Virus record (IMG/VR): IMGVR_UViG_3300014208_001203
Location: 1-47,734 of that record
Origin: a virus
Lineage: Duplodnaviria > Caudoviricetes
Length of the DNA stretch: 47,734 nt
Reading direction: 5' to 3' (one strand)
The number at the start of each line of letters is the position of its first letter. Position 1 is the first letter of the stretch. A model generated the notes under the pieces. That model saw only the letters and a list, made by a program, of their open reading frames with translations. It searched no databases and was not told the origin of the DNA. Below are positions 1 through 35,492 of the stretch, in pieces. Made by a program: the position numbers and the translations under genes.

Positions 1-90
1 ATGTTGATACATTTCAAACTCTTCCTTTGTTCCATTATGCAACTTCGATTCTGCCATCGCTGCCGAAAATTTTTGTCCTGTATGTGTCAT
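1..90 (-). CDS. Hypothetical protein, N-terminal part (runs off window)
   Basis: ATG at 90, open to the window edge (MTHTGQKFSAAMAESKLH...); not in the ORF track. Confidence 0.5.
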   Translation of the reverse strand, partial: MTHTGQKFSAAMAESKLHNGTKEEFEMYQH

Positions 91-132
91 ATAATTTAAC
101 TACATTTATTTGTGACCGTTATAAACAATAAA

Positions 133-309
133 TTAAAATTGTTTACATTTTAGTCTTTTGCTAAGTTTCTTCGCCCATCGAGCAAAAGATTTTGCTTTTT
201 CTTCATCAATATTTTCTGGCTCTACCATATGTCCAGCAGTTGCTTTATTTGCTGCGTCAAACAATTTGTCAGCAAAATCTTTCACGTCTTTATCTGTAAA
301 GTTTTCCAT
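133..309 (-). CDS. Hypothetical cassette protein, 58 aa
   Basis: Hand translation MENFTDKDVKDFADKLFDAANK...KCKQF*; fills one cassette; promoter motif upstream at 374-400. Confidence 0.7.
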   Translation of the reverse strand: MENFTDKDVKDFADKLFDAANKATAGHMVEPENIDEEKAKSFARWAKKLSKRLKCKQF

Positions 310-326
310 AATTTTAATTTACATTT

Positions 327-448
327 TTATAACAACAAATATAAAACATTGCTGTCGTGGTTTCTATTTATATTATACGTTATTTTCTAAGTTTTGTTTC
401 ATTAATTTACTTCTGTGTTGCAACGTTTTATATTTGCAACCGTTATAT
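327..448. repeat. attC-like hairpin site 1
   Basis: TAAC-aa-CAAATATAAAACATTGC ... GCAACGTTTTATATTTG-caacc-GTTA (16/17 paired). Confidence 0.85.
374..400 (-). promoter_or_regulatory. AAC-N16-CGTA promoter motif inside the loop of site 1
   Basis: Minus strand GAAAC-N16-CGTATA, same as 13 other copies. Confidence 0.7.
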
Positions 449-533
449 GCAATGCTACGTTTCTGCTTCGTATTAAGTTTCATCGTAACATTCTTTTTAT
501 TTTATTTTTTCTCCCACCTCACAAATATAGTAA

Positions 534-1379
534 TTATATTTTGAATATTTTATTTATTTTAATATTATCATCATCAAATACAATAATTTCATCAGTAATA
601 CCATAACCAGTGTCAGCATCAACAATTATTACAGTATCAAATCCTTCATTATTTGCAGTTTCTAACCAGCCAACTCTATTCCAATTAGTTCCTATATTTT
701 CACCTTTTTCTGTTGTTGTATTACCAAGTTTTATATCACATTCGTAAATGTATGCAATTCCGTTATTATCTTTTAAAACAGAAGCATAATAATTAGCATA
801 TTTTAATTCTCTAAAAAAGAAAAAACCATTATCAGCACCAAGTTGTCCACTTGATTTATTTTCTCCATATCTAAATTGTTTAAATTTAAAAGAACTTGCA
901 TGATAACCTTTCATTGTTTTTTCATTTTTATTGAAATTTGGTTTTATATTATTTTTATTATCTTTATATAATTTTCTCGCTTCATCTTGAAGTTCTTTAG
1001 TATTATCCATTATAAATGTCCAATGATTACTACCATAATCTTTATCCGCAATTATCGTTTTATAATGTGCAAATGATGTAGTTCTATTTTTATAAACGGT
1101 ATTGTTATTATTATCTTTAACAATTCTACCAATAACAATTTCATCACCTTTATTTATTCTACCATAATCTTTAATTAAATTAATATCGTTTAAATAAACA
1201 TATTCTTCAACAAAATCATTTTCTTTCCATTTTCTTGCATTATCAATAAATGGTTGTAATTTAGATTTATCAAATTTATAGTTGTAATCAAAATCATTAT
1301 CTGAATTTTCCACTTGTTCATTCAAATATTCACGTATAGTAGTTGCTATAAATTTGCGTAGTTTCATATCTTTCTCCAT
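534..1379 (-). CDS. ADP-ribosyltransferase-fold-like (ART-PolyVal-like) protein with LRKFI..TIREYL leader
   Basis: YHAS..F..F, GFFFF...YA..Y, EGFDTVII, EIIVFD motifs resemble 12806..13375. Confidence 0.6.
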   Translation of the reverse strand: MEKDMKLRKFIATTIREYLNEQVENSDNDFDYNYKFDKSKLQPFIDNARKWKENDFVEEYVYLNDINLIKDYGRINKGDEIVIGRIVKDNNNNTVYKNRTTSFAHYKTIIADKDYGSNHWTFIMDNTKELQDEARKLYKDNKNNIKPNFNKNEKTMKGYHASSFKFKQFRYGENKSSGQLGADNGFFFFRELKYANYYASVLKDNNGIAYIYECDIKLGNTTTEKGENIGTNWNRVGWLETANNEGFDTVIIVDADTGYGITDEIIVFDDDNIKINKIFKI

Positions 1380-1487
1380 ATATTTTACTTTATATATAAA
1401 TATTCAAATTTTAAATTTCTTCCCACAAAAAATAAAACAAAAAGTTTCATCTCTCATATCAAAGTTTGTAGTATAAATCCGCACTGC

Positions 1488-1581
1488 ATATAACAAGGTG
1501 TATAAGAAAGTTTGCTATCAACGATAGTGGTAATTTGAAAGTTTATACAAGCAAACCTTCTCATACACCCAATCGTTAGGT
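1488..1581. repeat. attC-like hairpin site 2
   Basis: TAAC-aa-GGTGTATAAGAAAGTTTGCT ... AGCAAACCTTCTCATACACC-caatc-GTTA (18/20). Confidence 0.85.
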
Positions 1582-1591
1582 GCAATATTTT

Positions 1592-2371
1592 TTAATTTTT
1601 TTGCCACCCCACTTCGGTTTTTTCAAAACCGTTTGGAAAAAACTCGTTCATTGTTTTGCCACTTAACCACCATTGCATTGCAATCTCTCCGTTTCCATTC
1701 GTGGCACAAGTTAATTTCCATTGTGGATTTTTGCTCATTCCTTTTGTAATTGCTCGTTTAATCGCTTCATAATATTTTGGATAAAGTTCAAATTCTTTTT
1801 CTCTTGCACCTTTTCGGCTCACTAATGGGCAGCCAACGCAACCAAGTCTATTTGCTCCAGTTCCGTAATGTGGTGCAAGTTTTATTTGTTTTTCGGCAAT
1901 AAATGAATAAACATCTTTATCAGTCCAATCGTAAATTGGATAAACGTGTTGGCTTCCTTTTTGCCATTTTCTATTATCGCATTGCACGTAATCTCTATTT
2001 TGTCGGTTCTTGCTTTCAGAACTACGAACACCTTCAAACATAATTTTACCAACCGAAACGTATTCTTTCAAAAATTCACAGCAATAGCGATTTAATCTTG
2101 TTGGTAATCCTTTGCGTTCAACTAATTGATAAAATGTTTCTTTTGGTTGCATTATTACTGTGTGTGGGTAATTATCTCTAATGTGCTTTATTGTTCCAAT
2201 CGGGTCGATAGTTGTATTTGCATAAATTGAAGTATATTCGATGCCTGATTTTTGCAATAAATAATCAACTACGGCACTATCTTTACCTCCAGAATTACCT
2301 GCAAATAATGGTTTGTCGGTAGCGTTTGCAACCGTATGTATAAATTTTATTGCTTTTTCTTCTAAATTCAT
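1592..2371 (-). CDS. PAPS reductase-family (PP-loop) protein
   Basis: SGGKDS PP-loop, RYCC, GVRSSES, PIYDWT, RLGCVGCP; start moved to MNLEEKA at 2371. Confidence 0.85.
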   Translation of the reverse strand: MNLEEKAIKFIHTVANATDKPLFAGNSGGKDSAVVDYLLQKSGIEYTSIYANTTIDPIGTIKHIRDNYPHTVIMQPKETFYQLVERKGLPTRLNRYCCEFLKEYVSVGKIMFEGVRSSESKNRQNRDYVQCDNRKWQKGSQHVYPIYDWTDKDVYSFIAEKQIKLAPHYGTGANRLGCVGCPLVSRKGAREKEFELYPKYYEAIKRAITKGMSKNPQWKLTCATNGNGEIAMQWWLSGKTMNEFFPNGFEKTEVGWQKN

Positions 2372-2408
2372 TTTTATTTCCCTCCCTAAAAAATTAAAAA
2401 ATACAGAC

Positions 2409-2462
2409 ACCTAACAGCGTGTATGTTGCATTAAAACGACAACATACACGCAACCGTTAGCA
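2409..2462. repeat. attC-like hairpin site 3 (minimal)
   Basis: TAAC-a-GCGTGTATGTTG-cattaaaacga-CAACATACACGC-aacc-GTTA, perfect 12-bp arm. Confidence 0.9.
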
Positions 2463-2466
2463 AACA

Positions 2467-2682
2467 TTATTCAGTAACATTTAGAATAACTATATAATTG
2501 TCAATTGGTTTATCTGTGTTAAAATGATACCATTTATCATTCTTTCTCTCAACAGGTATTTCCCAATGTTCTATATTATTTAATCCTTTAACTAAATATC
2601 CTTTTAACATATAACGTTTGCTAACACCAGCTATATTTAATTGCTGGTTATCTGTGCTATTTAAGTTTTGTTCTTTGTTCAT
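2467..2682 (-). CDS. Hypothetical cassette protein starting inside hairpin site 4
   Basis: 71-aa ORF; QLNIAGVSKR is encoded by the arm and core of site 4. Confidence 0.7.
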   Translation of the reverse strand: MNKEQNLNSTDNQQLNIAGVSKRYMLKGYLVKGLNNIEHWEIPVERKNDKWYHFNTDKPIDNYIVILNVTE

Positions 2683-2749
2683 AATACATCTTAATTTGAT
2701 AGCTTAGTGTTTCAAAATCAGCAACTAAACATAGCTGTAAACGTTATGG
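2619..2749. repeat. attC-like hairpin site 4
   Basis: TAAC-ac-CAGCTATATTTAATTGCTGGTT ... AATCAGCAACTAAACATAGCTG-taaac-GTTA (19/22). Confidence 0.85.
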
Positions 2750-2968
2750 TCAATTGTAAAAAACCGCCTCCGTAGTCTTTACCCTTTGACCTTGAATTAA
2801 GGCATTTAATCCTATTTCATCAAATGTGGTATTCTCTGCAAATCCACTCGTGTCCATTTCTCCACTATCACACCAAATTGTAACTATCACACTTTTCGGT
2901 ATTGGATTTGTTTTAATAGGCAAAAATTTGTCTATATGTTCATTAATTTGTTCTGCTGTCCATTCCAT
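2750..2968 (-). CDS. Hypothetical cassette protein
   Basis: 72-aa ORF whose stop abuts the GTTA core. Confidence 0.65.
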   Translation of the reverse strand: MEWTAEQINEHIDKFLPIKTNPIPKSVIVTIWCDSGEMDTSGFAENTTFDEIGLNALIQGQRVKTTEAVFYN

Positions 2969-3030
2969 CGCTCAAAATATTTAATTATTACATTTTACCT
3001 CGTATCAATATTTGTGCGTAATTATCGCAC

Positions 3031-3076
3031 TGGTCATATACCTGTCCGTTATAGCACATTAAAACGATGCTATAAC
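3031..3076. repeat. Orphan right half-site followed by an empty cassette
   Basis: tgtcc-GTTATAGCA-cattaaaacga-TGCTATAAC; no matching left arm found upstream. Confidence 0.75.
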
Positions 3077-3318
3077 AGCAAATATATTTAATTTTAAAAA
3101 TTTGGAACTGTCACTACAATTGGATATTTCTTCGGTTTATTGGCTGAAAAAAATTTACTTTCAGTCATATATTTACCAATCCATTGTTTAGTTCTATCTT
3201 CAACAATTTCATTAAATGCTCTATATTTTAGAACATCAAGTAAATTTTCTTCTGTTATTTTAATTGCCCATTTCATAATAAAATTTTTAAAACTATAATA
3301 TATTTGCAACCGTTAGCA
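3070..3318. repeat. attC-like hairpin site 6 with a gene in its loop
   Basis: GCAAATATATTTAATTTTAAAAATTT (3078-3103) pairs with 3281-3307, then aacc-GTTA. Confidence 0.8.
3094..3276 (-). CDS. Hypothetical protein, 60 aa, between the arms of site 6
   Basis: MKWAIKITEENLLDV...; ATG at 3276. Confidence 0.6.
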   Translation of the reverse strand: MKWAIKITEENLLDVLKYRAFNEIVEDRTKQWIGKYMTESKFFSANKPKKYPIVVTVPNF

Positions 3319-3322
3319 TCAA

Positions 3323-3502
3323 TTACCACATAAAACTATTACATTTTTCACAGTACCGTTGTTTGCCAAATATACTTTTTTTACTATGTTCTTCTTGTGT
3401 GCAATGTGGTAACTGTTCGCTTCGCACACTAACATCAGATAACAACAATTTTTCAGTGCTATTATCAATGTTTTTTGTTAATTTTTTACTTTTGTTTTTC
3501 AT
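3323..3502 (-). CDS. Hypothetical 59-aa protein with CxxC, starting inside hairpin site 7
   Basis: Hand translation MKNKSKKLTKNIDNSTEKLLLSDVSVRSEQL...YCEKCNSFMW*. Confidence 0.6.
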   Translation of the reverse strand: MKNKSKKLTKNIDNSTEKLLLSDVSVRSEQLPHCTQEEHSKKSIFGKQRYCEKCNSFMW

Positions 3503-3544
3503 ATTAAAATTCGTTTAAACTGCTGTTATCTGTGACCGTTATAC
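3427..3544. repeat. attC-like hairpin site 7
   Basis: TAAC-at-CAGATAACAACAATTT ... AAACTGCTGTTATCTG-tgacc-GTTA (14/16). Confidence 0.8.
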
Positions 3545-3561
3545 ACAATTGCTTTTTATAT

Positions 3562-3588
3562 TATACGTAAATAATTAGATTTTGTTAC
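3562..3588 (-). promoter_or_regulatory. AAC-N16-CGTA promoter occupying an ORF-less cassette body
   Basis: GTAAC-N16-CGTATA between cores 3538 and 3605. Confidence 0.7.
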
Positions 3589-3598
3589 GAGCAAATGT

Positions 3599-4502
3599 GC
3601 ATAACAGCAAATATAACCAATGCTGTCAGTGCTTCGTAGCAAGATTTGCACAAGTTTTACCATAATTTTTATTTTTTTGCCCACGCACTTCAGTTTTTTC
3701 AAAACTGTTAAAGTTTACAATAAATGCGTCCAAAAGCTCAATGGAGAACCATGATAAAAAGTAGTTTCACATTCATTATTATATTTACCATTAATGGTTT
3801 TTGTTATTTCACCATCTTTGTATATTTCTACTTTAACAATATTTTCTACTGGAATATTTTTTAAACATATTTCACTATATCCACCATATTGTTCTTGTAT
3901 ACTTGACCATTCTAAGGGAGATAGTAGTGATAAATCGTCTTTTTTTATATATGTAAGCAACACATCCACTTCTTTTAAATTTGGCTCTTCACTAAAACCA
4001 CATCCGTTTAAAAACTCCTTAGTTAAATTTGTTAGTTCATGTTCTGAGTAATCTTCTTCATTCCACTCCCTTTTATATTGTTTCAAATCATCAATTATTT
4101 CATCTTTATATCCAGAAATCCAAATATCACCACCAAAATGTTTATTTACATTATCCAAACAAACATAAAACAAAACACCATTTTTTATTGGATGTCTGTA
4201 TGCATGTGCCGCTGATGTTTGCCCATTTGCATATGCACTTGCATATGATTTTGATATGGATAAATATACCAAATTTAAACCAAACCCAGTACTTCTTGAT
4301 ATATTTGGCTTAATTTTTAATTTGCCAAATTCTTCTCTAATTAATTTACGTATAAAATCTTCTTGTTTTGTAATCATAATATCCAGTTTTTTATATATAA
4401 ATATTAAAAAATTAAAAATCCACCCTAAAAAATAAAAATTATTAGTGTAGTGTTTCAATCAAACATTTGTGGTAGCACTGGTTATATTTACAACCGTTAT
4501 GT
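3599..4502. repeat. attC-like site 8 with an ~850-bp gene-containing loop
   Basis: GCAAATATAACCAATGCT (3607-3624) pairs with AGCACTGGTTATATTTAC (4474-4491), 16/18. Confidence 0.75.
3715..4377 (-). CDS. Hypothetical protein with FIRKLIREEF leader, possibly ART-like
   Basis: Start moved to MITKQ at 4377; VYLS...YA..YA and C-terminal FYHGSP. Confidence 0.65.
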   Translation of the reverse strand: MITKQEDFIRKLIREEFGKLKIKPNISRSTGFGLNLVYLSISKSYASAYANGQTSAAHAYRHPIKNGVLFYVCLDNVNKHFGGDIWISGYKDEIIDDLKQYKREWNEEDYSEHELTNLTKEFLNGCGFSEEPNLKEVDVLLTYIKKDDLSLLSPLEWSSIQEQYGGYSEICLKNIPVENIVKVEIYKDGEITKTINGKYNNECETTFYHGSPLSFWTHLL

Positions 4503-4506
4503 GGCA

Positions 4507-4704
4507 TTAAGCACCACGCAACTTTTCGCCTCTCATGTCATCACAATTTTTTCTACCCCACTCAAGCACTTCCTCGTATGCTTTTTTCATATTTGGTTTT
4601 GCTTCATCATACACTTCTGCATTTTGATAACATCTACTACTTAACCCACAGAATATACGATAAAGTCCTTCTGCTGTTTCCTTGTCAAATTTTAATTCTT
4701 CCAT
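4507..4704 (-). CDS. Hypothetical cassette protein, 65 aa
   Basis: MEELKFDKE...; fills the cassette between cores 4496 and 4724. Confidence 0.65.
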   Translation of the reverse strand: MEELKFDKETAEGLYRIFCGLSSRCYQNAEVYDEAKPNMKKAYEEVLEWGRKNCDDMRGEKLRGA

Positions 4705-4717
4705 AATAATTAACGCC

Positions 4718-4839
4718 ACATAACAACGTGTATAAAACATTGCCTTTCGTGGTCTTTTTTAAGTTTATACTAATTTTATAATTTTGTTCATTTTATTAAG
4801 TTCTGTGTTGGCAACGTTTCATACACGCAACCGTTATAC
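4718..4839. repeat. attC-like hairpin site 9 (last in array)
   Basis: TAAC-aa-CGTGTATAAAACATTGCC ... GGCAACGTTTCATACACG-caacc-GTTA (16/18); loop resembles site 1. Confidence 0.85.
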
Positions 4840-5882
4840 ACAACATCCTTCTTTTTTTAAAATTTTAATGTTTTTATAAATTACTGATTCGCTCAAACCA
4901 GTTATTTTAATCAACTCCTTTACAGAAATACCTTTTTTATAATAAAGCTTGCAAATGTTTAAATTTTTTTTACAATTTTCTTTTTGGGATAATTTTTCAA
5001 ATGATATATTATTCCACTTTCTTTTTAAAATAGGAAGTTTTAAATTAATAGCCAAATTTTTAATATATTTTGTAATTTCTATATCAGTTACATGACAAGA
5101 CACTAAATTTCCATCATAATACGGAGTATAAATCTTATTAAATTTATCAGTAAAAGGACTTAACATTTTTATTATGTTTTCCTCCCAATTCTTGTGTACT
5201 TTAATTGTAATATAACCCCTTTTATTTATAGAACCATCTCCATCAATAAACCCTATTGCAATTGGAACTAATTCATCTTTTGTTAGTTTGTTAAAATCAC
5301 AAGGAACATAAGTTTTGTTGTGATTTATTTTAAATTTTTTATATAAAAAATCCCATATTTCTCTAATTCCAACATACAAACTTGGTTTAGTCAAGTGTAA
5401 TTTATAAATTTTGCTAATTTTTTTAAATGTTTAAAATCTTTTATTGCTAAATTAATTTGTAGTTGTTTGCTTTTTTCATTAAAATGACCATCTGCTAAAC
5501 AAAATCCAATCCAATATAAACTTTCATTTGAACCGTTTATTAATTTGAATGGATTGGAAAAAGATTCTGATTCACGTTTTAACTTAAAACAAAATGCTTT
5601 TTGTTGAATTGCACTCCAAGATCTTCCTAATTTTTTTACAAAATCATCAACATTACCTTTTTTATAATTCTCTTTCAAATATTTTATCTCCTGAGTTTTC
5701 CATATTTTTTGTTCCCCATTTTTATGATTTACTTTAATTCTTTTTATTCCAAGTTTTGATGCTCTGCTCTGAATTCCAATCCACGTTCTTTGCAAGTGAC
5801 TTATTAAATCTTTTTTATTTAAAGATTCGTAATTTTCAAACAAAAAATCATCTTCTTCTTTTTTCCAAATTGTTTTTTCCAT
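4834..5882 (-). pseudogene. LAGLIDADG endonuclease split into two ORFs (5391-5882 and 4834-5394)
   Basis: YWIGFCLADG in the first ORF and IGFIDGDG in the second; both motifs are in one ORF in paralog 11867..12646. Confidence 0.65.
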
Positions 5883-5943
5883 ATATCTATATTTTTTATA
5901 TAAATATATGTAAATTTGGGAAATTATGAAAAAAATCATATTA

Positions 5944-6387
5944 TCATCTACTTTCATTAATTTCTCTGTCTATTTCTTTAATTTTTAAACTCATTTTTTT
6001 GTCGAAAAGTTTTTTTCCTTTAGCCAGGGCTATTCCAAGCTTAATTAAACCTTTGTCATTAACAAATATTTTCGTAGGGACAATTGTAAAACCTTTTTCT
6101 TGTGTTTTGCTTTTTAGTTTTTTAATTTCTCTTTTAGTAAGAAGAAGTTTTCTATCTCTCTTTGGCTCATGCTGATCATAGCTTGAGTTTTTATATTCAG
6201 AAACGTGAATGTTTTTTACAAAAACCTCACCATCCTTAATATAACAATAAGCATCAGTAAAACTTACGGCCCCGTTCCTAATTGACTTCACTTCTGATCC
6301 AACCAGCGCTATTCCAGCCACAAATTCTTCTATAAAAAGAAATTCAAAGCTGGCCTTTTTATTCTTTATGCTAATATTATTTTTCAT
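5944..6387 (-). CDS. smpB: SsrA-binding protein SmpB
   Basis: NKKA, AGIALVGSEVKSIR, H.P.RDRKLLL.KREI, LAKGKKLFDK motifs. Confidence 0.95.
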   Translation of the reverse strand: MKNNISIKNKKASFEFLFIEEFVAGIALVGSEVKSIRNGAVSFTDAYCYIKDGEVFVKNIHVSEYKNSSYDQHEPKRDRKLLLTKREIKKLKSKTQEKGFTIVPTKIFVNDKGLIKLGIALAKGKKLFDKKMSLKIKEIDREINESR

Positions 6388-6721
6388 TTTCTAATGTTTT
6401 TTGATACATTTCGTATAAATAGTCTACAGGATGAGTTTTGTCAACAGAAGAATAATCCAACATTTTTTTCATCATTAGATCAATTATAAGAGCATGTTTT
6501 TCTTTTGGATATACTGTATTAAAGTTCTCTGCTATTCTTTTTGGTAAGTGTATAATGCACAGTTCAAACCAGCTAATTGGAGAGTTTGCTTGGGAACCTT
6601 TTAAAAACAACATTTTGTTATCATCATTAAACATTACTATCGTATCATACTCTGGAAACAAGTCTTTACTCATTTCCACCAATTTGCTTTTTTGTTCCTC
6701 AGTTAAATCCAGTGTTTTCAT
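6377..6721 (-). CDS. Hypothetical protein
   Basis: 114-aa ORF in an overlapping gene string. Confidence 0.7.
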   Translation of the reverse strand: MKTLDLTEEQKSKLVEMSKDLFPEYDTIVMFNDDNKMLFLKGSQANSPISWFELCIIHLPKRIAENFNTVYPKEKHALIIDLMMKKMLDYSSVDKTHPVDYLYEMYQKTLENEK

Positions 6722-6729
6722 TTTTAAAA

Positions 6730-7245
6730 TTATTCACCGTTTTCTTCTTCGTGTTTTCTCAATATTTCTTTTGCAATTTCCAAACTTAAATCCAGTTCTT
6801 TTTCAACAAGAGAAAATTGATCTTTTAATTTGAATCTAACTGATTCCTTTAAGTGTTCTTTGTTTAAAACAAGCATTAAGTTATTCATGAATTTTTTATT
6901 TAATTCTTCTAACATTGCTTTTTCCATTTTATCTTCATCAAGAGAATTTTCTTGCATTATTTTAAAATACTCAGAACTTGTTAAAAACAACTTGTCGTAT
7001 TCAACCACTTTCTCAAATGAGTTCTTTGTTATTTCAATTATTCCTTTACAAAAATCATTATAAGAATATGGAGAAATAGATGGATCAACATGGTTTACCA
7101 GAGCATTAACTGAATTTAATTTCATTTTCCACTCGTCAAAGTTTTCAACAAAATTTTCCAGCATATTTTCCTCAATTCCGTTTTTTAAATTGGAAATCAT
7201 TACTTTTTTAATTTCCTCAATCTCTTTATTATTCATGGATTTCAT
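6730..7245 (-). CDS. Hypothetical helical protein
   Basis: 171-aa ORF in operon. Confidence 0.7.
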   Translation of the reverse strand: MKSMNNKEIEEIKKVMISNLKNGIEENMLENFVENFDEWKMKLNSVNALVNHVDPSISPYSYNDFCKGIIEITKNSFEKVVEYDKLFLTSSEYFKIMQENSLDEDKMEKAMLEELNKKFMNNLMLVLNKEHLKESVRFKLKDQFSLVEKELDLSLEIAKEILRKHEEENGE

Positions 7246-7954
7246 CTATTATTTTGTTAATTAACTGTTTTTTTAGAATTCTAGAAAAATTTGACAATAC
7301 AATTTCAAATATAATTACAAACACTATATACAATTTAAACTCCAGTGGAATATTAAGAGCAACTATTACATAATAGAAAGCCCAATATAAAAAAAATATT
7401 CCAAATATAGCTGGTAAAAAAGCAAAAAGCACTCCAAAAACGGCTTGCTTTTTCATTGATTTGTTTTCTTTTTCAAGATCTTCCATTGATGTTGAAAAGT
7501 CTATTTTATTATTTTCATACTTTTTTCTTATGTCTGGTACTCTTTTTAAAGCATTCATCATTCCTGTCAAAATAAAAATAGAAGATAATGTTTTAAAAAT
7601 TGCAAGGGCACATGCTAAACATATAAGTTGAATTGCAAAAAAACTTAAATTTACATTTAAAAACAAGTATGCAATCAAAGACCAAAAAATAATTAAATTA
7701 AAAATAGAATAGATAAAAAGATCTTTTTCCATTTTATACTCTCCTTTTTTAACAGTTTGATTATCTTCTTTCCAAGAATATGCCATTGCACAAGAAACAG
7801 AAATTATTACAAGAGGAATTGAAAACCAGTGAAAATTTGCCAAAAAAATAAACCACAACAGTACACTATAATTTAAAGTGGTAATTAATCCAGAGAAAAT
7901 AGACCTCAATATAGGAATATTTTCTACATCTATTCTTTTAAGGAAACTAAACAT
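7229..7954 (-). CDS. Multi-pass membrane protein
   Basis: About six hydrophobic segments. Confidence 0.7.
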   Translation of the reverse strand: MFSFLKRIDVENIPILRSIFSGLITTLNYSVLLWFIFLANFHWFSIPLVIISVSCAMAYSWKEDNQTVKKGEYKMEKDLFIYSIFNLIIFWSLIAYLFLNVNLSFFAIQLICLACALAIFKTLSSIFILTGMMNALKRVPDIRKKYENNKIDFSTSMEDLEKENKSMKKQAVFGVLFAFLPAIFGIFFLYWAFYYVIVALNIPLEFKLYIVFVIIFEIVLSNFSRILKKQLINKIIDEIHE

Positions 7955-8101
7955 TTTAAAAGTTTTTTAAAATTAATAATTTGATTCTTAGAGCTTGGAG
8001 TTTAAAAAACCCAGAAACATACAAATATGAAAAAGTAAATGCACTACTAATCCACACTAAAATATAAAAGAAAATAATTTTCATAATAGCTTTTTTTAAT
8101 G

Positions 8102-8128
8102 TATACGAAATTTTAATAAAAAAGTTAT
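8102..8128 (-). promoter_or_regulatory. AAC-N16-CGTA promoter motif
   Basis: ATAAC-N16-CGTATA. Confidence 0.7.
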
Positions 8129-9498
8129 TACAAACTTGATGCTTTATGAATTTCTAAACATTCTTCAAGGGTATTGGCAACATCTTTATCTCCAATTCTA
8201 TGCTTAATATATCTTGGATGTAACAAAGAATATCCCTTTTCTGTAATGGAAACTCCATTACATTTTATTTCAGCGATTGCTCCCAAATACTTGCCTTGAT
8301 TATTAGTAATTTCTTCCATGTCATCTTCCGTTATTCCACCTGCTGTAGACTTTAACAATCCATCATCGCTTTGTACCAGTAAAGAAGATATAACATTTTC
8401 GTTTTTGGTTCCTTTATCTCCGTAACTAAATCCAACAATTTTTAGATCTAACATTACTTCCTTCTTTAATTTTATTTGATATGATGGTTTTGAATCTACC
8501 CACAACCCATCTGCAGCTTTAAGAATTGTACCCTCCAAACCTCTCAACAAAACATCTTCAAAATGTTCCATTGCTTCTTCTTTATTTTTAACAATCCTGG
8601 TTTCGACTACAGATAACATTTCAAATCCAACCACAACTTTTTTAAGTTCTTCAAGCCTATCATCATAAACTCTACTGCAAGTTCTTGAGTAATATTCATC
8701 AAGGGTTAATAAGTCCCAGGAAGTTATTCTAATTAAATCCAAAGCTTCTCTATATGGCATGTGTTTAGATTCGAATTTCGCAATTTCTTTATCAACATTT
8801 TCACCTTTACTTTTTTTGTTTGCGATAGATATTAAAGATGTAATCATACCATTACTTTTGTATCTTTCAACGTTATCCATAGTTAATTCACAATTCAAAA
8901 CACCATCTGGTAGCATTTTCAATTCTTTAAGAAATTTGGGATTTTCAAGATTTGTTGGTTCACCTTGTCGTGAGACCATTTCAACATCTCCATCGCTAAT
9001 TGTAACGTTAATGTATTGACCGTCAAGCTTTAGTTGACTGTAAACTTTTTTGAATTTCTTAAATAATTTATCAACCAGATCTCTTGAATATGCTTTACAT
9101 CCCTGATATCCTACTTTTTCAATCAAATCCGTCCATACTTTATTTAGCATTTTTGTTTCAAGTCCAATTTTCGGCTTTTTTTCGATAATACGCTCAATTA
9201 TATAAGCATTTTCTGGAGACAATGATTCTAAAGTGTTTGACAAATGAGAAATAGCGGCATAACCAGTAAGTTCTCTGCTACTTAATTTTGACAATCTTTC
9301 TAAGGCAGATTCCAAAGTTTCATTTTGTCCAACATTTATATATTCTGGGATTGTTTTTATGTAAAATTTTACTCTTTTTGAACAGGCCATATAAAGAACT
9401 CTTTTTAAAAGTTCATTATCCTTATAAGAATCAAGAATTTCCATTTTTTTAATAGTCGAGCTTTCAGCCGCTATTTCGTCAAATATTTTTTTAATCAT
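8128..9498 (-). CDS. ATP-dependent DNA ligase (T4-like)
   Basis: KLDG adenylation motif, SRQG, EGTILK, IKLK, LLHPRY. Confidence 0.9.
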   Translation of the reverse strand: MIKKIFDEIAAESSTIKKMEILDSYKDNELLKRVLYMACSKRVKFYIKTIPEYINVGQNETLESALERLSKLSSRELTGYAAISHLSNTLESLSPENAYIIERIIEKKPKIGLETKMLNKVWTDLIEKVGYQGCKAYSRDLVDKLFKKFKKVYSQLKLDGQYINVTISDGDVEMVSRQGEPTNLENPKFLKELKMLPDGVLNCELTMDNVERYKSNGMITSLISIANKKSKGENVDKEIAKFESKHMPYREALDLIRITSWDLLTLDEYYSRTCSRVYDDRLEELKKVVVGFEMLSVVETRIVKNKEEAMEHFEDVLLRGLEGTILKAADGLWVDSKPSYQIKLKKEVMLDLKIVGFSYGDKGTKNENVISSLLVQSDDGLLKSTAGGITEDDMEEITNNQGKYLGAIAEIKCNGVSITEKGYSLLHPRYIKHRIGDKDVANTLEECLEIHKASSL

Positions 9499-9516
9499 AA
9501 TGAATGTTTTCTAATT

Positions 9517-9543
9517 TATACGAAAAATTATACAATTTGTTTG
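9517..9543 (-). promoter_or_regulatory. AAC-N16-CGTA promoter motif upstream of ligase
   Basis: CAAAC-N16-CGTATA. Confidence 0.65.
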
Positions 9544-9590
9544 ATTTAAATGCAAAAATAAATTATATTTATTAAAAAACAAAATTTATT

Positions 9591-10661
9591 ATGGAGAAAA
9601 TCAGGAAAATAATAAAAGAAGAATTACATGCTATCTTAGAAATAGAAAAAATAACAAACGAATTGGCTCCTTATTGTATGAAAAGAATTAGTTCTGAGAA
9701 AAATTATGCAATTCAATATAAACAAAAAACAGCAGGAACTTCTTTTACTGTACAAGAATTAAATTTATCTCATAGTGCATTTGTTAATTTTTTGATTATT
9801 AATGTTGAATTTAAAAAGGAAGCCGACAATAAAGAAATAAACAAAGTTGGCGGAAGTTACATAGAAGAAAGTATTGACCAAGAAATTGTAAATGGAATTA
9901 TAAAATATAACGGAGAAATTAAATTAAAACTGTATAATTGGGATTACAACACCGATTTAACCCATCAAATAAAAAATGTTCTTGACCATGAGTTACATCA
10001 TTTTTTTGATGATATAATAACATTTAACAAGAAAAAAACTACAAAATTTTTAAATTCAGTCAATCGTATGACAATTGATATTTCCCAAAAGTTATTAGAA
10101 AAATATCCAGAATTAAAAGATTTTACAGAGATATTTTATTTAAATCTCTCAAAAGAAAGAAATGCAAGAATTCAAGCAGTAAATTTTGAGGCCAAAAAAT
10201 ACAAAGATCAGACATTGGATGTTATCATTGAAAAACTCGGTAAATTTGCACCATTTAAAGATTTCCAAAGAATGGATAAATTTGATGTAAATAAATTAAA
10301 TTACATTCCGATTGAAGATAGAAAAAAGTTTATAGAATTATTTAACATTTCTTTGAATTATAACAGAAAAAAATTTAATATATCAGCAGAAGAAATAAAC
10401 TATCCAAAAGAACCAGACAAGTTTTTTGGTTTTTGGAAAGAGCAATTTAAAAAAAATTCACAAAAATTGTTTAAAGACTCAATTTCTATTGCAAAAAAAA
10501 TGGCAAACTCTCCAATTAAAGAAAATTGGAATTATAAGTTTGATGATGATTTGAGTCTTAAGTCTATGGAAATTTTGTTTAATTATCATTACAGAAGCAC
10601 AAAAATGGAAATAAACAAGTCAAATGATGATAGAATAAAATATTATACTAAAGTTCTTTAA
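9591..10661 (+). CDS. HExxH putative zinc metallopeptidase, paralog 1
   Basis: HELHH plus downstream ERNAR; close to 14652..15707. Confidence 0.65.
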   Translation: MEKIRKIIKEELHAILEIEKITNELAPYCMKRISSEKNYAIQYKQKTAGTSFTVQELNLSHSAFVNFLIINVEFKKEADNKEINKVGGSYIEESIDQEIVNGIIKYNGEIKLKLYNWDYNTDLTHQIKNVLDHELHHFFDDIITFNKKKTTKFLNSVNRMTIDISQKLLEKYPELKDFTEIFYLNLSKERNARIQAVNFEAKKYKDQTLDVIIEKLGKFAPFKDFQRMDKFDVNKLNYIPIEDRKKFIELFNISLNYNRKKFNISAEEINYPKEPDKFFGFWKEQFKKNSQKLFKDSISIAKKMANSPIKENWNYKFDDDLSLKSMEILFNYHYRSTKMEINKSNDDRIKYYTKVL

Positions 10662-10662
10662 A

Positions 10663-11862
10663 TTAAATCATCTTTTTAATTTGTTTAACAATTTCATTAA
10701 TCATATCTTTTTCATTGGTTATAATTTCAAAGTCTGGATTTGTTAACTTAAATTTATATGTAATATATCTTTGCCCTTCGAACCCTTTATCTGCACCAAC
10801 TATAATTTTAACATATTTTTGTTGTGATTTTGTCCACCACTCTGATATTTCCCACCTAGTTGTTTGAGCAAAGCTTCTTCCTTCAATTTTTTCAACTTCT
10901 TTTGCCAACCAAAACACTATTATTCCTTGTTTAGATGCTTTTTCTAAATATTCACTTTCCCAATTTACTTGTTCTTCGTAAACAAAATCTTTTTTACTAA
11001 ATTCTCCTAACCTTTTTGGACAGACCAAAATTATATTTTTATTTGTTTTTACATTTTTCAATCCTTCTTGAATCTTCTCTAAAAAGTTTTCATGCCAATT
11101 TGCGCCTTGAATTGGTCCTGCTAAAAACACAACAATGTCTTGGTTTTCTTCAAATGTAGATACTTTATATTGTTCTGGAGCTCTTAAAACCTGCACTGTT
11201 CCGACCCTGTGTTTAATGTTTGAAATCAACTCGCCAACAAAAACGTTTTGATCATAATGAACTCTAATTCCGTTCATTTGAAATTTAATTAGTTCTTCAG
11301 AAACGGGAGTAAAATGCCAAATATCTACGCCAACATTTACAGAATTCCTTTGAACTTTCCATAGCCCATGAATATGTCCAACAATATTAAACACATTTTC
11401 TTTTGCATTGGTTGGAAAATGGTTCAAGTACACTTTTTCTCCACCAATTTCAATTTCCAACTCATCATAAACTTCATCGAAATATTTTAACAACATTTTG
11501 TCGTTAATTTCAAAATTTGCTGTTCCTCCATTTTCTTTCGAAATATCGTAATTTCCTTTAATTAATATTTTTTTACCATTTAACTGATTTAAAATATCTA
11601 AACCATCTTTGTCCATCGATATGTCTCCCAAGAAATATGTCAAATCATTTTTCCCAACGGTTTTATTAAATACATCTTTTAGGTGTTCATTAACTTCTTT
11701 TTCGTTTTTAAAGATTAAATCACGACCATATAAGTTTAATCTATTATCGTTTATATGCCAGTCACTTGTAAAGAATATTTTTCTTTTACTTTTTTGTTCT
11801 TCTAACATTTTTTCCCGAATTTGTTTTTTTACAATTTCTACAACTTGCAATATTGTTTTCAT
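10663..11862 (-). CDS. Calcineurin-like metallophosphoesterase fused to a nucleoside 2-deoxyribosyltransferase-like domain
   Basis: SDWH, LGD, GNYD, GHIH; C-terminal VFLAGPI...QVNWE. Confidence 0.8.
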   Translation of the reverse strand: MKTILQVVEIVKKQIREKMLEEQKSKRKIFFTSDWHINDNRLNLYGRDLIFKNEKEVNEHLKDVFNKTVGKNDLTYFLGDISMDKDGLDILNQLNGKKILIKGNYDISKENGGTANFEINDKMLLKYFDEVYDELEIEIGGEKVYLNHFPTNAKENVFNIVGHIHGLWKVQRNSVNVGVDIWHFTPVSEELIKFQMNGIRVHYDQNVFVGELISNIKHRVGTVQVLRAPEQYKVSTFEENQDIVVFLAGPIQGANWHENFLEKIQEGLKNVKTNKNIILVCPKRLGEFSKKDFVYEEQVNWESEYLEKASKQGIIVFWLAKEVEKIEGRSFAQTTRWEISEWWTKSQQKYVKIIVGADKGFEGQRYITYKFKLTNPDFEIITNEKDMINEIVKQIKKMI

Positions 11863-11866
11863 ATTT

Positions 11867-12646
11867 TTATTTTTTTAAATTATTATTTTTTATAAAATTA
11901 CTTAATGTTGAAGGTCTTAAATTTAGTTCTTGACAAATTTCTTTATTTTTTTTACCACTTTCTAATAAGTGTATAATTTTTATTTTGTTTTTTTGTGCCT
12001 TTTCATTTCTGCTAATAAAATTTAAATCAATTTTATCCCACTTTCTTTTCATAAAAGGAATATTTAGAGAAATCGCCTTTCTTTTTATTCCTTTTAAGAC
12101 AACTGAATTTGATATGGCAAATTCTGCATATCCACACCCATTAATTCTTGCACTTGGCAATTTAAAAGTAAAATCCTTATATAACACTTCTAAAAAATAT
12201 TTTAATTGGCTTAACCAACTTGAATGGCATTTTACTCTTAAATTACAGTCTTTTCTTTCGTGCAAAGTGGTTATACAGCCATCTCCATCTATGAATCCAA
12301 TTATTAAACTAAATATTTTATCACATTCTTTTATAGAAGTTAAATTAGGAGGACAATACGTTTTATTACTTCCAATATCATATAATTTTGTTATTCTATC
12401 AAAAATTAAAGAGTCTCTCCCTCCTATTCTAAAAGATTTAGTTTTTTTGTTGTAAGATATGTTTTCAATATTTAAAAAATCTTTTAATTTTAACAGGTGT
12501 TGCTTGTCTTTTTTAGACAAAGCTATTACAATTTCTTTAGTACTTTTAAAGCTTGCATCTGCAAGTAAAAATCCGAGCCAATAATATTTTTCTAAATTTT
12601 CATCTAATAATTTCTCAAAATTACATTTTTTATTATTTTTTGCCAT
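11867..12646 (-). CDS. LAGLIDADG homing endonuclease
   Basis: YWLGFLLADA and IGFIDGDG motifs, C-terminal HTH-like tail. Confidence 0.85.
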   Translation of the reverse strand: MAKNNKKCNFEKLLDENLEKYYWLGFLLADASFKSTKEIVIALSKKDKQHLLKLKDFLNIENISYNKKTKSFRIGGRDSLIFDRITKLYDIGSNKTYCPPNLTSIKECDKIFSLIIGFIDGDGCITTLHERKDCNLRVKCHSSWLSQLKYFLEVLYKDFTFKLPSARINGCGYAEFAISNSVVLKGIKRKAISLNIPFMKRKWDKIDLNFISRNEKAQKNKIKIIHLLESGKKNKEICQELNLRPSTLSNFIKNNNLKK

Positions 12647-12805
12647 ATCTTTTTCTTATAAATATGACAAAATAAAATTAATGTGTATCAGGGGTGAAAC
12701 TTTTTCCAATAGGTTCCATATACTATTTTTTTAAGTTTTTATAAAATAAAAATGCCCGTAATTCAATTACAGGCAAATTTAATAAAAAAAATTCAATTAT
12801 CAAAA

Positions 12806-13375
12806 TTAAACTTTTTCACTTTTTATAATTTTTGTTTGATTATCATTAAAAACAACAATTTCTTCACCAGTGCCATATTCAATTATTATTGCATCATATC
12901 CTTCATTTTCTAAACACTTAGATATTTTAATAGCTCCAAACTTGTCAGATATAGAAAAAAAATCTATCATTCTTGTTTCTTCATTTTTCACATCTGAATA
13001 CCCAAAGTCTGCTCCTCCTTTAGTTAGGATATCAATGTATTTTTGTACTTCTGGGTTAATTAAATTCCTGTCAATTTTCCCGTTTTCTTGGTTCATTTTA
13101 TATTCTGAATATTTTTCATAATCTATTTTATACGGGTTTTTAACATCTAATTCTACAGTTAATATATATCCATCAGAACCGTTAGCATAAGTTTCTGCAA
13201 CTTTTTTATCTGTTGAGAAATATAAACCTCTACCAAAATCTCCAGCATTGTTTTGAGACCCAGATTTTTCTAATTTAAACTTATCGAATTTATGCGGAGT
13301 TCCATGATAAGCAATAATCTTCTTTTTGACACCAGCCAACTCTTGTAATCTGTTTTTGTAATTTTCAGTTATCAT
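12806..13375 (-). CDS. ADP-ribosyltransferase-fold (ART-PolyVal-like) protein
   Basis: YHGT..KFDKF, FGRGLYFST...A..YA, KNPY, GYDAII, EIVVF. Confidence 0.7.
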   Translation of the reverse strand: MITENYKNRLQELAGVKKKIIAYHGTPHKFDKFKLEKSGSQNNAGDFGRGLYFSTDKKVAETYANGSDGYILTVELDVKNPYKIDYEKYSEYKMNQENGKIDRNLINPEVQKYIDILTKGGADFGYSDVKNEETRMIDFFSISDKFGAIKISKCLENEGYDAIIIEYGTGEEIVVFNDNQTKIIKSEKV

Positions 13376-13404
13376 ATTTATTTTTTATATAAATATTTGA
13401 AATT

Positions 13405-14514
13405 TTATATTACAAATTTAGAGTATTTTTTTATTTCATTTAGAAACTCATCTTCCATTTCTCCGTGATAATAATGTGTGTCTGGTCCATTATCATAAAT
13501 CATCACTGCGCATTTTATATTATAATAAATCTCGTCTAATAATTGTTCCATATAGCTTCTATATTTAGGATTGCCATATTCGGTCACAACTTCTTTGTCT
13601 GCAAATAAGTTTATAGCTTGAGAAACAATTTTATGCCTTGCTTCTAGACTCATTCTCTTTGCTCTACCAATCCAATAATTAAAGAAATCATCTGGATTAT
13701 CAATTATTTTTATAGAATTTACATTTCCTTCTTTTGAAAATTTTAAAAGATATTTGTTAAAATCATTAACAAAATCTTCTTTTATAAATTCATCCAAATT
13801 TAAAACCCAATGGGGTTTAAACTTTTGTACTTTTAAAAAATCTCTGAAAACAGATAACTTATTCAACTCTCTTAAAACTTCATCATGTGTCTTTGCATGA
13901 AAATTTAATTTAAGATTTTTGATTTGAACATATGCTTCATGCACTCTTGCATCCACTTCTTCAGGTAAACTTAAATAGAAAATATCCATAAACCTTTCAA
14001 ATTCATCTATTCCATCAAAAAATTCTAAATTTTTCATTTTATTTCTGGTATTGTATAAAGCTTTTGAATAATTATTTGAATCAATTGTTGTTATATGTTG
14101 AAATGAGTGAAATAATTCATGTGAAAAAACCTTTTTTATATCATTTTTTAAGTCTGTTTTATAATCCCAATTAATTATGTAAATTTCAAATTTTACAAAA
14201 TACCTAAATTCATTTCTAATAAAATCTTGTCTTAATTTTATTAACCTCCCTGAAACACGGTTTATTTTATTACTTTTTTCTTCATCTGGAATTATATCTA
14301 TTCTAATTTCCCATATTTTAGATATTTTTCTATCTTCATCAGACATTTTTTCATCTATACGCAAATTGTCTTCACTTCCTAATTTTTCTTTTTTTTGTTG
14401 AAATTTGTTTGTTAATATTTCCATTATTCTTCTCGAATACTTATCTGAAATATTATCCAGCGGAAGATAATGACCCAAAACTTCTCTAACTAATTTTCTG
14501 AATTTATTTTGCAT
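13405..14514 (-). CDS. HExxH putative zinc metallopeptidase, paralog 2
   Basis: NWDYKTDL..VFSHELFH, IFYLSLPEEVDAR. Confidence 0.65.
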   Translation of the reverse strand: MQNKFRKLVREVLGHYLPLDNISDKYSRRIMEILTNKFQQKKEKLGSEDNLRIDEKMSDEDRKISKIWEIRIDIIPDEEKSNKINRVSGRLIKLRQDFIRNEFRYFVKFEIYIINWDYKTDLKNDIKKVFSHELFHSFQHITTIDSNNYSKALYNTRNKMKNLEFFDGIDEFERFMDIFYLSLPEEVDARVHEAYVQIKNLKLNFHAKTHDEVLRELNKLSVFRDFLKVQKFKPHWVLNLDEFIKEDFVNDFNKYLLKFSKEGNVNSIKIIDNPDDFFNYWIGRAKRMSLEARHKIVSQAINLFADKEVVTEYGNPKYRSYMEQLLDEIYYNIKCAVMIYDNGPDTHYYHGEMEDEFLNEIKKYSKFVI

Positions 14515-14651
14515 GTGTGCTTTTAATGATAAATATTTTTAAATTATAATGACAATAATATACAAAAATTTTTCTCTAATGTCAATATCCTAAACAATAT
14601 TATTTAAATTATATTTTGTTTTTGTTATATTTATATAAACATCATTGGAAT

Positions 14652-15707
14652 ATGAATAAAATTAGAAAAATAATTCAAGAAAAAGTGCATGTTGTTCTTG
14701 AAATTAAAGAAATCGTAAAAAAACTTGCTCCATATTATATGAAAGAATTTTATAAAATGGTGCCCAATATAATTGAATATAAACAAAAAACATATTGGAC
14801 TACAATTCCTGTTTCTGAATTATATCTATCCAACAATGCTTTTGTAAATGAGCTAATGATTACAATATATTTCCACAAAGAATCAACTGAAAATGTCGAA
14901 AACATTGTTAGTGGTCAATTTTCTGAAGAAAGCATAGATCAAGAAATTGTTGATGGAATTGTTAAGTATAACGGTGCAATAAATTTAAGAATACACAATT
15001 GGGATTATAAAACAAACTTAGAAGAACATTTAAAAAGTGTGTTCTCTCATGAATTACATCATTTTTTTGATGATATTGTGACATTTAACAAAAAGAAAAC
15101 AACAAAAATTTTAAACTCTGTCAATAGAATGACATCAAATTTCTCTTTAGAATTATTAAATAAATATCCAACACTAAAAGATTTCACAGAAATATTCTAT
15201 TTAAATCTTCCAAAAGAAAGAAACGCAAGACTTACTCAGCTGTCTGTAGAGGCAGATAAATACAAAGGGAAACCAATAGATTTTGTAATAGAACAGCTTG
15301 GACACTTAACTGCATTTAAAGATTTCCAAAGAATGGATAAATTTGATGCTAATAACCTAAAAAACATTCCATATAATGACAGAAAGCAATTCATTGATTC
15401 TTTTAATCTATCTTTAAACTATTCTAAAAACACCATGAATATTTCCTCAGAAGATCAAAATTACCCCAAAGAACCAGATAAATTCTTTGAATTTTGGCAA
15501 AGACAATTTAACAAAAATGCAAAAGTGTTATTTAAAAAATCCATTAACATAGCAAAATTTTTAAGCAAAGAAAAAATTAATGAGAACCACATTAATTTAT
15601 TAGAAACAAAATTAAATTCTACTTCATTAGAAATACTTTTCAATTATGGTTTGGATAATATAGGCATAGAAAAGAATACACACTCTGACCGAATTAAATT
15701 TAAATAA
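14652..15707 (+). CDS. HExxH putative zinc metallopeptidase, paralog 3
   Basis: HELHHFFDDI, IFYLNLPKERNAR; start moved to MNKIRK. Confidence 0.65.
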   Translation: MNKIRKIIQEKVHVVLEIKEIVKKLAPYYMKEFYKMVPNIIEYKQKTYWTTIPVSELYLSNNAFVNELMITIYFHKESTENVENIVSGQFSEESIDQEIVDGIVKYNGAINLRIHNWDYKTNLEEHLKSVFSHELHHFFDDIVTFNKKKTTKILNSVNRMTSNFSLELLNKYPTLKDFTEIFYLNLPKERNARLTQLSVEADKYKGKPIDFVIEQLGHLTAFKDFQRMDKFDANNLKNIPYNDRKQFIDSFNLSLNYSKNTMNISSEDQNYPKEPDKFFEFWQRQFNKNAKVLFKKSINIAKFLSKEKINENHINLLETKLNSTSLEILFNYGLDNIGIEKNTHSDRIKFK

Positions 15708-33564: not shown

Positions 33565-33565
33565 G

Positions 33566-34363
33566 TTAAACGTGTTTAAATTTAAATAATTTTTTATCTA
33601 GCCATTTAAATAATATATCTTGCAAAAAACCTATTATTATTATAATAAGAATTATTGCAAAAATCTTATCTAAACGACTTTGTTTTGCAGAAGTATAAAT
33701 CATGGCTCCTACGCCACCTTCATTATTCACCATTTCGGCTACAATTATATAAGTCCATGAAATTGCAGTGATAACTCTAATGTCAGCAGAAAGCTTTGAA
33801 ATAACGGATGGCCAATATATTTTTGTAAAAGTTTGCCAACTATTTGCGCCCAACGTGAAGATTGTATCAAGATGAATTTTTTCAGTTTCATATACTCTCT
33901 GTACAACTATAGGAAGCAAATAAACTATAATACCAAATGCAAGAAAGTTTATTTTCATTCCAGAAGAAATTCCGAACCATGCTATAAAAACTCCAACTAG
34001 ACCAGTGAGTGGCACATATCTTAATGCATCAATATATTTACTAAACATACTTCTCAAAAAAGGAATCAATGCAATTAAGAATCCTATTGGGATGGAAAAA
34101 ATTATAGCTTTCACATAACCAGCAATATTCAATTTTAAAGAATATACAATGTTTGACATTAGGTTGTCTTTTTGAAAAAGCTCAACAAAAGATACCAAAA
34201 CACTTCCTGGACTTGGAATTGTTTGAGGTTTCACCAATCCTGTTCCAGTGGTTATTAAAAACCAAACAAACAGCAAAAAGAAAAAACCAGCAATTCCAAC
34301 AATCAACGAAAGATTTTCAGATATATTTCCACCTAATTTAAAAAGAGACTTAAAAGTTTTCAT
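33566..34363 (-). CDS. ABC transporter permease (NitT/TauT type)
   Basis: PSP, multiple TMs, TLGA, SWTYIIVAEM. Confidence 0.88.
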   Translation of the reverse strand: MKTFKSLFKLGGNISENLSLIVGIAGFFFLLFVWFLITTGTGLVKPQTIPSPGSVLVSFVELFQKDNLMSNIVYSLKLNIAGYVKAIIFSIPIGFLIALIPFLRSMFSKYIDALRYVPLTGLVGVFIAWFGISSGMKINFLAFGIIVYLLPIVVQRVYETEKIHLDTIFTLGANSWQTFTKIYWPSVISKLSADIRVITAISWTYIIVAEMVNNEGGVGAMIYTSAKQSRLDKIFAIILIIIIIGFLQDILFKWLDKKLFKFKHV

Positions 34364-34399
34364 TTTTGTTAATTTAATTATTTCCGTTTGTTTTCATAT

Positions 34400-35485: not shown

Positions 35486-35492
35486 ATTTCAA

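Follow-up and report, generated by a model that had tools for sequence, protein, structure and literature searches.

The array and its sites

The window considered here, that is, the whole stretch of DNA analysed, is the complete IMG/VR record IMGVR_UViG_3300014208_001203: 47,734 nt of a virus assigned to Caudoviricetes, with a G+C content of 28% and a completeness rated at 13%. Its genes include those for SmpB, an ATP-dependent ligase, RecD2, homing endonucleases and a reverse transcriptase, and relatives of its sites and of the recombinase discussed below point to a probable host among the Bacteroidota. The best-matching sequencing run is a groundwater metagenome, from which the DNA may come. 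Between positions 113 and 4840, at the left end, lies an array of gene cassettes with paired-arm sites resembling the attC sites of integrons. A reading made from the letters alone (hereafter the sequence-only reading) had taken this array for a phage-borne gene-shuffling system recombining at G|TT. The window has R''/R' cores, with cassettes bounded at G|TT, and the array resolves as follows (+, top strand; -, coding strand; ORF, open reading frame; aa, amino acids):

Truncated cassette, 1-118: right arm and the G of G|TTA (118); ORF on the - strand starting near 90 and leaving the contig (read by eye)
Cassette A, 119-442: 58-aa ORF 133-309 (-) and site 330-445
Cassette B, 443-1575: shell with inner inverted repeats 497-510 / 1427-1440; site 1491-1578
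Payload of cassette B, 534-1379 (-): 281-aa ORF with shared N-terminal leader and upstream TATTTAT motif
Cassette C, 1576-2456: PAPS-reductase-domain ORF 1592-2371 (-), PF01507, E 1.4e-18
Inner inverted repeats of cassette C: 1587-1600 / 2388-2401
Site of cassette C, 2412-2459 (+): minimal, 48 nt, with loop CATTAAAACGA, a loop also in P12002L_attC1
Cassette D, 2457-2743: 71-aa ORF 2467-2682 (-), starting within site 2622-2746 and running through its left arm and core
Cassette E, defective, 2744-3048: 72-aa ORF 2750-2968 (-); right arm alone, ending at 3051
Cassette F, 3049-3312: empty stem 3048-3076 with CATTAAAACGA loop; 59-aa ORF 3094-3273 (-) in the loop of site 3073-3315
Cassette G, 3313-3538: 59-aa ORF 3323-3502 (-), starting within site 3430-3541; poorly complementary ends
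Cassette H, 3539-4496: short stem 3538-3605; site 3602-4499 with inner inverted repeats 3664-3677 / 4427-4440 in its loop
Payload of cassette H, 3715-4377 (-): 220-aa ORF with shared leader and TATTTAT motif, inside the site loop
Cassette I, 4497-4833: 65-aa ORF 4507-4704 (-) and site 4721-4836
Distal TT core remnant, 4834-4845 (+): followed by a homing-endonuclease-like gene in two ORFs, then smpB
attC-like sites (top strand +, folding strand -): 330-445, 1491-1578, 2412-2459, 2622-2746, 3073-3315, 3430-3541, 3602-4499, 4721-4836

Pfam searches with eight cassette ORFs, down to E 0.5, gave nothing real, and the ESM Atlas placed payloads B and H in viral clusters with weak ART-PolyVal leads only (0.81; 0.88 with 29% of members). 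No complementary partner of the distal TT core was found in 4837-12000.

Eight complete sites of the form TAAC-2 nt-arm…arm'-5 nt-GTTA and two right half-sites, which end at 121 and 3051 without a left half, all lie inside 113-4840. The sequence-only reading had counted eight hairpins and two lone right halves, and both counts stand, with the half at 121 probably cut by the contig end; the arms do pair, yet two of the 'hairpins' are 243 and 898 nt long, each with a gene in its loop. The spacer asymmetry that it had called constant is indeed 2 nt on the left and 5 nt on the right in all eight window sites, but spacer pairs of 2/4, 2/6 and 2/8 also occur elsewhere in the site family. Its remark that no clear extrahelical base could be seen was sound: arms are ungapped, and extrahelical bases near L'' absent, in seven of the eight window sites, the right arm of site 3073-3315 needing one bulged base, and 240 of 327 phage sites of the family are unbulged (74 have a right-arm and 13 a left-arm bulge).

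Arms that differ between sites and pair within a site had likewise been described, and this is borne out: with bottom-strand G·T pairs counted, arms pair at a mean of 15.25 of 16 positions within a site vs 9.96 of 16 across sites, a comparison in which the sites had been selected for pairing. A stricter finder located six sites in 1-5000, none in 5001-47734 and none in each of 200 dinucleotide shuffles; a loose pattern search of whole phage records gave counts no better than control and was used solely to locate arrays. The claim that the sequence after each GTT is complementary to that before the next TAAC holds in part. Beyond the core, the four pairs originally quoted match at 8-9 of 10 nt, whereas three of the remaining four testable cassettes match less well (6, 4 and 6 of 10) and the pair 3315 vs 3430 of cassette G fails (2/10). 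In related loci, the cassette end matches the previous GTTA at 4.29/6 nt (n=51) vs 2.28/6 to the site's own GTTA (n=138).

The arms are also asymmetric between strands. Where they mismatch, the plus strand shows A·C and the minus, coding strand G·T; a G·T-neutral finder applied to the window and 27 loci (18 with sites) counted minus-strand G·T in 83 cases vs 2. Of 138 sites, 92% have G·T at arm position 13 and 41% at position 8, as counted with a finder that credits minus-strand G·T. In integrons it is the recombining strand that is richer in G·T, 1.24 vs 0.39 (PMC5027507; this and the other publications cited were available in part, and statements about them refer to the parts available). The G·T mismatches thus make the minus strand behave like the bottom strand of attC. 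Single mismatches in the quoted end pairs of cassettes B, D and I, read from the sequence, have the same polarity, as expected if both ends extend one stem in an excised circle. Moreover, the minus strand folds lower than the plus strand in six of six sites, with -18.7 kcal/mol (z -5.4) for 1491-1578, and two of the six fold far beyond shuffles. Since the ORFs of cassettes D and G start in the site and cross its TAAC end, cutting is predicted at the GTTA end.

Junctions, cassette order and reused shells in related loci

Homology to related phages breaks off or sets in at G|TT. Across 202 viral and metagenome loci, the 60 nt left of window junctions have 37 distinct matches, whose identity stays at 0.86-1.0 over TTA and drops to 0.24-0.35 in the next three positions; seven matches begin at the TT. 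Individual loci behave in the same way: homology to cassette C begins exactly at 1575 (L250), homology to cassette I begins at 4494 (L266), and site 4721-4836 is matched at 96% identity up to GTTA, where the match ends (L018). The crossover position proposed by the sequence-only reading is therefore supported. Cassette order varies as well. In L088 and L127, shell H is followed directly by shell B, which in the window lie 3 kb apart and in the opposite order; the H-then-B order is present in run X3 too. These junctions and the changed order support the interpretation as a phage-borne gene-shuffling system. In run X1, the contig piece 1-123 has a depth of 29.2 vs 12-14 for its neighbours, and a fork in the assembly lies 2 nt past the GTTA at 118-121; a duplicate or another strain may account for this. 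In a relative that shares the ligase-to-smpB block, the 3.7 kb past smpB contain no site. One locus (L008, 3997-4619) contains an identical right half-site twice, 498 nt apart, with one left half.

Exchange is not confined to whole cassettes. Shells B and H recur, and their payloads share only a leader of 20-24 residues: in L088 and L127 both shells hold payloads unrelated to those of the window, shell B of L022 also holds an unrelated one, and in L011 the right end of shell B adjoins a different gene. The site body 2622-2746 is likewise reused at 82-92% identity in seven of seven loci, with most ORFs unrelated beyond the first 20-24 residues. Such observations invite an account in which units are shuffled by homologous or illegitimate recombination at similar repeats and gene leaders, with no dedicated enzyme. 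It would fit payload swaps that end inside the shared 20-24-aa leader, site bodies reused at 82-96% identity, and the many records from which the enzyme is missing. It does not fit junctions that fall at one position between otherwise unrelated flanks, end complementarity that follows the cassette rather than the site, or the one-sided, oriented linkage to a recombinase and a hairpin-free core described below. It probably accounts for the payload swaps; as an explanation of the array we consider it improbable.

The leaders themselves suggest a function for the payloads. One relative carries an ART-PolyVal ADP-ribosyltransferase as its shell-B payload, and four of five related large phages encode a T4-type prohead protease (the T4 cleavage motif is I/L-x-E). 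We hypothesize, by analogy with T4 internal proteins, that the leaders direct capsid targeting. In T4, unrelated capsid-targeted internal proteins share a common short N-terminal leader (PMC9026906), as the payloads do here; the leader sequence differs, and targeting and prohead-protease cleavage would be parallels by analogy. Elsewhere in the window, 9591-15707 and 12806-13375 contain genes with upstream TATTTAT and charged leaders resembling payloads B and H, one of them an ART-PolyVal gene.

T-rich/A-rich inner inverted repeats with CCCAC-like motifs flank three window payloads (B, C and H), and the motif CCCAC.GCAC occurs 70 times on the top strand vs 6 on the bottom strand in 100 loci. 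A second recombination system at these repeats is not supported by the counts: the unit is filled nine times on the top strand (three in the window) and never empty under the criterion used. Cassettes of related phages often carry DNA methyltransferase-like genes (L011, 3858-7143; L010, 4360-5148; L154, 29248-32126), annotated as such in L154 and judged from sequence in L011 and L010.

A recombinase linked to the arrays

In related phages, a tyrosine recombinase of 266-285 aa without the IntI insertion adjoins an attI-like core, on the side that is cut off in the window. A first locus scan found such a gene beside the array in two loci; carriers include a complete 266-kb genome and cultured Polaribacter and Cellulophaga phages. 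About 55 nt upstream of the recombinase gene, a conserved core of roughly the form ACATAT-N4-G|TT, followed after TT by unrelated sequence and itself without a hairpin, is present in 29 of 31 viral loci, a count read by eye over loci many of which are close relatives. The linkage is one-sided: the 31 viral recombinase loci have 15 sites upstream and none in 253 kb downstream, and with a spacer-tolerant finder 64 of 67 phage sites near the recombinase are upstream and divergent. The complete genome G007 has the recombinase followed by 18 sites in the orientation of the window, which would place the recombinase of the window genome left of base 1; the cultured phages Leef_1, Freya_10 and Ingeline_1 show the same layout of recombinase, core and inverted cassettes. 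No contig reaching left of the window start was found.

These enzymes stand apart from integron integrases. Linked enzymes score 157 and 99.5 bits against TIGR02249 (integron integrase), vs a cut-off of 265; their best alignment is to archaeal XerA, about 43 residues of IntI4 are skipped, and the spacing from K-x-R to HxxRH is 53-59 residues vs 100 in an IntI. In a quick tree of 64 of the 142 proteins, three IntI form a separate clade with support 99, and monophyly of the linked family is weak (79). Peptide patterns of the family match an estimated 2000 or so stored genome stretches.

[quoted passage not shown] Its cores do match GTTRRRY/RYYYAAC, and the question can be followed in Polaribacter phage P12002L, which has four family sites by a strict finder, two loop-motif sites and methyltransferase cargo, and in which HattCI calls one family site. 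The description of this phage (PMC9892861) treats its CALIN as ordinary attC serviced by IntI and, in the part available, describes no cognate recombinase, distinct geometry or inversion. There, IntI1 recombined attC2, whose construct includes the left half of a family-type site. On the other hand, P12002L_attC1, the one complete family site tested, with an 11-nt loop identical to that of site 2412-2459, was the only one of six sites not recombined by IntI1. Moreover, one complete integron from Bacteroidetes is all that IntegronFinder 2.0 names (PMC9024848), the linked enzyme is missing the IntI insertion and lies outside the IntI clade, and the phage genes are inverted. We therefore find a CALIN in the usual sense very improbable.

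The inversion emerges when phages and bacterial chromosomes are compared. In phages, 78 of 152 loci yielded 237 sites, and the ORFs lie antisense to the top strand, pointing towards the recombinase, in 173 cases vs 7; all nine window cassette ORFs share the antisense orientation and aim at the GTT core of their own cassette, as the sequence-only reading had stated. The best 80 genome loci, mostly Bacteroidota, yielded 55 sites in 31 loci with ORFs along the top strand (36 vs 5), and 44 of the 55 sites are downstream of the recombinase and co-directional with it. Both site counts come from the spacer-tolerant finder, which allows four spacer lengths, over phage and chromosome loci that are mutually non-independent and include a few contigs of metagenome-assembled genomes that look viral. 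Phage sites also contribute coding sequence: in 69 of 264 phage sites, an ATG within the site opens, in one register, a frame of at least 40 codons that crosses the core, vs 17 and 6 in the other registers, the third of which often hits a stop by construction, and 1 of 57 bacterial sites.

With folding strand and coding strand the same in phages, the hairpins might be thought to be RNA elements of the phage transcript, such as processing sites, terminators or translation switches. G·T (that is, G·U) polarity on the mRNA strand of phages, 173 vs 7, and the many start codons in loops would agree with this. Yet Bacteroidota chromosomes have the same polarity on the non-coding strand (ORFs 36 vs 5), and this reversal argues against a purely RNA role, as do DNA junctions at G|TT and the absence of an Rfam family (searches at gathering and E-value levels returned nothing real). 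RNA elements as the primary explanation thus merit very little credence, and a secondary RNA role of the hairpins is possible. No RNA dataset containing the array stretch was listed.

Several observations weigh against recombination at G|TT as the whole story. The tyrosine recombinase, 'own or borrowed', expected by the sequence-only reading is absent from the contig (none in 59 ORFs or six-frame searches), and it is the relatives that carry the Xer-like enzyme. Even among 15 related viral records, six have a full-length enzyme, one a 116-aa fragment and eight none, two of these being 96-100% complete. No circular-cassette joint was present among the joints listed, which come from assembled contigs only, and short contigs of a 2022 run span some junctions in unchanged order. 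Hairpin bodies swap partners at the TAAC end and payloads swap inside shells, for which G|TT recombination alone is insufficient. Cassettes E and G are damaged. Finally, three of the six folds are weakly better than shuffles (z -1.7 to -2.3) and one is not (z -0.1).

Part of this would be accounted for if the array, of the same origin, were now a frozen relic with its recombinase lost and its order fixed, an account compatible with ours on origin. Besides the lack of an enzyme on the contig, the damaged cassettes and the same junctions in the 2022 run, it is favored by the nearly complete relatives G004 and G003, which hold arrays with the enzyme absent or truncated. Against it, the contig, rated 13% complete, ends on the side that bears the enzyme in relatives, the assembly fork after the first GTTA coincides with doubled depth, and seven of eight arms are nearly perfect. 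We regard a relic as unlikely, while giving it serious consideration. G003 itself is a complete 362-kb phage in which a recombinase cut to 116 aa heads an array (L304, 1489-1839), with a second array elsewhere.

Taken together, we put at roughly 0.78 the probability that the nine whole cassettes and one cut cassette were built by site-specific recombination at G|TT through a phage-type, Xer-like tyrosine recombinase, its gene probably lying just left of the contig or having been lost. Direct support comes from site anatomy, minus-strand G·T polarity, cassette-specific ends, G|TT junctions, altered order, and the linkage of recombinase and attI-like core in relatives.

Other features of the window bear on its context. 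The phage encodes SmpB (5944-6387), yet no tRNA or tmRNA was found in the window. Viral relatives of this SmpB were not found; a metagenome search gave 15 loci, and the one examined (L236, 72% identity) has one site about 1 kb beyond smpB. Between array and smpB (4834-5957), the homing-endonuclease-like gene consists of two overlapping ORFs, and the syntenic locus L263 has none there. The reverse transcriptase region (PF00078; 41023-43488) has a 106-aa ORF upstream and two related ORFs downstream (phrog_11581), a layout that we take to suggest a diversity-generating retroelement. The reverse transcriptase (41321-42289) was set aside as a cassette maker: it is 36 kb distant, and payloads include upstream DNA. 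Also present are an ABC-transporter cassette (ATPase, permease and an NMT1-OmpA fusion; 32596-38861) and an adenylosuccinate synthetase gene (43534-44745; Pfam E 5.8e-156), a candidate PurA or PurZ whose PHROG family label is 2-aminooxy adenylosuccinate synthetase.

Proposed mechanism and relation to integrons and rAID arrays

How might such an array work? By extension from integron biology, the minus strand would fold as single-stranded DNA and undergo cleavage at AA|C, on the side of the 5-nt spacer; the cassette would leave as a single-stranded circle in which both ends extend the same stem. The circle would be a dumbbell, which would explain cargo in either loop. The loop CATTAAAACG(A/G), with 62 top-strand and no bottom-strand occurrences in 100 loci, is present in the window in a site loop as well as in an empty cassette stem, consistent with a dumbbell whose loops can both be used. 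Strand choice would depend on the 5-versus-2 bulge and the fixed G·T pairs, replacing the extrahelical bases that the IntI insertion reads. Transcription of phage genes, which lie antisense to the top strand and in the same direction as the recombinase gene, would start at distal or internal promoters, with about a quarter of sites providing a gene's start codon and initial residues. Were phage genes to run with the replication fork, the lagging-strand template would be the strand that folds, a position that raises excision in integrons (PMC5371416).

The system shares with integrons and CALINs (PMC5027507, PMC9024848) the RYYYAAC…GTTRRRY cores, the G|TT crossover, the cassette-specific complementary ends, a hairpin with unpaired spacer and variable loop and one strand richer in G·T, as well as, in related phages, an attI-like core upstream of a divergent recombinase gene. 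In contrast to integrons, its enzyme has no IntI insertion, extrahelical bases near L'' are lacking, array genes lie antisense to the top strand, start codons fall within the site and cargo sits in the loop. By its sequence features, the system is integron-like in its predicted working and outside the IntI integron family.

A second relative is found on chromosomes. The Bacteroidales arrays named rAID-1 (10.1101/471110) combine an XerD-like recombinase, defined by >44% identity to BF9343_RS08045, with short genes in arrays that have recurring intergenic motifs 'reminiscent of integrons'; rAID arrays are treated also in a 2025 preprint (PMC12247911). The 44 of 55 chromosomal sites that are downstream and co-directional resemble rAID by description. 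However, rAID arrays are chromosomal, downstream of the recombinase and loaded with immunity genes, with site structure and crossover left undefined in the available part of 10.1101/471110, whereas the phage array is in a viral record, upstream, divergent and inverted. Judged from these layouts, the array is a putative mirror-image phage form of a Bacteroidota system overlapping rAID.

The system is thus partly in print already, as rAID arrays and phage CALINs. We found no published description of the phage layout, in a search whose coverage mostly excluded subscription journals; the available parts of PMC8618304 and PMC8876359 hold nothing specific to the phage system. The description of Leef_1, Freya_10 and Ingeline_1 sees in the integrase an indication of a temperate lifestyle and, in the part available, mentions no integron or cassette (PMC8776804).

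A broader proposal may be advanced tentatively, although we doubt it more than we believe it: that Bacteroidota phages run their own IntI-independent integron in flipped form, the recombining strand being the coding strand, with the site as a gene-making scaffold that supplies start codon and N-terminus, dumbbell loops as places for cargo, and shells that load capsid-targeted proteins. If true, this would add a second family of single-strand cassette recombinases and make one way in which cassettes arise visible. In Bacteroidetes, surveys for integrons come up nearly empty, yet these arrays are common in their phages. Should the enzyme recombine single strands in folded form with neither the IntI insertion nor extrahelical bases, the accepted strand-choice rule would not be universal, and rAID arrays would gain a mechanism. 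The 'integrase' genes taken as lysogeny markers in cultured flavobacterial phages (PMC8776804, as far as available) may then be cassette shufflers. With cultured phages in existence, reused shells and in-site start codons make the origin of cassettes testable.

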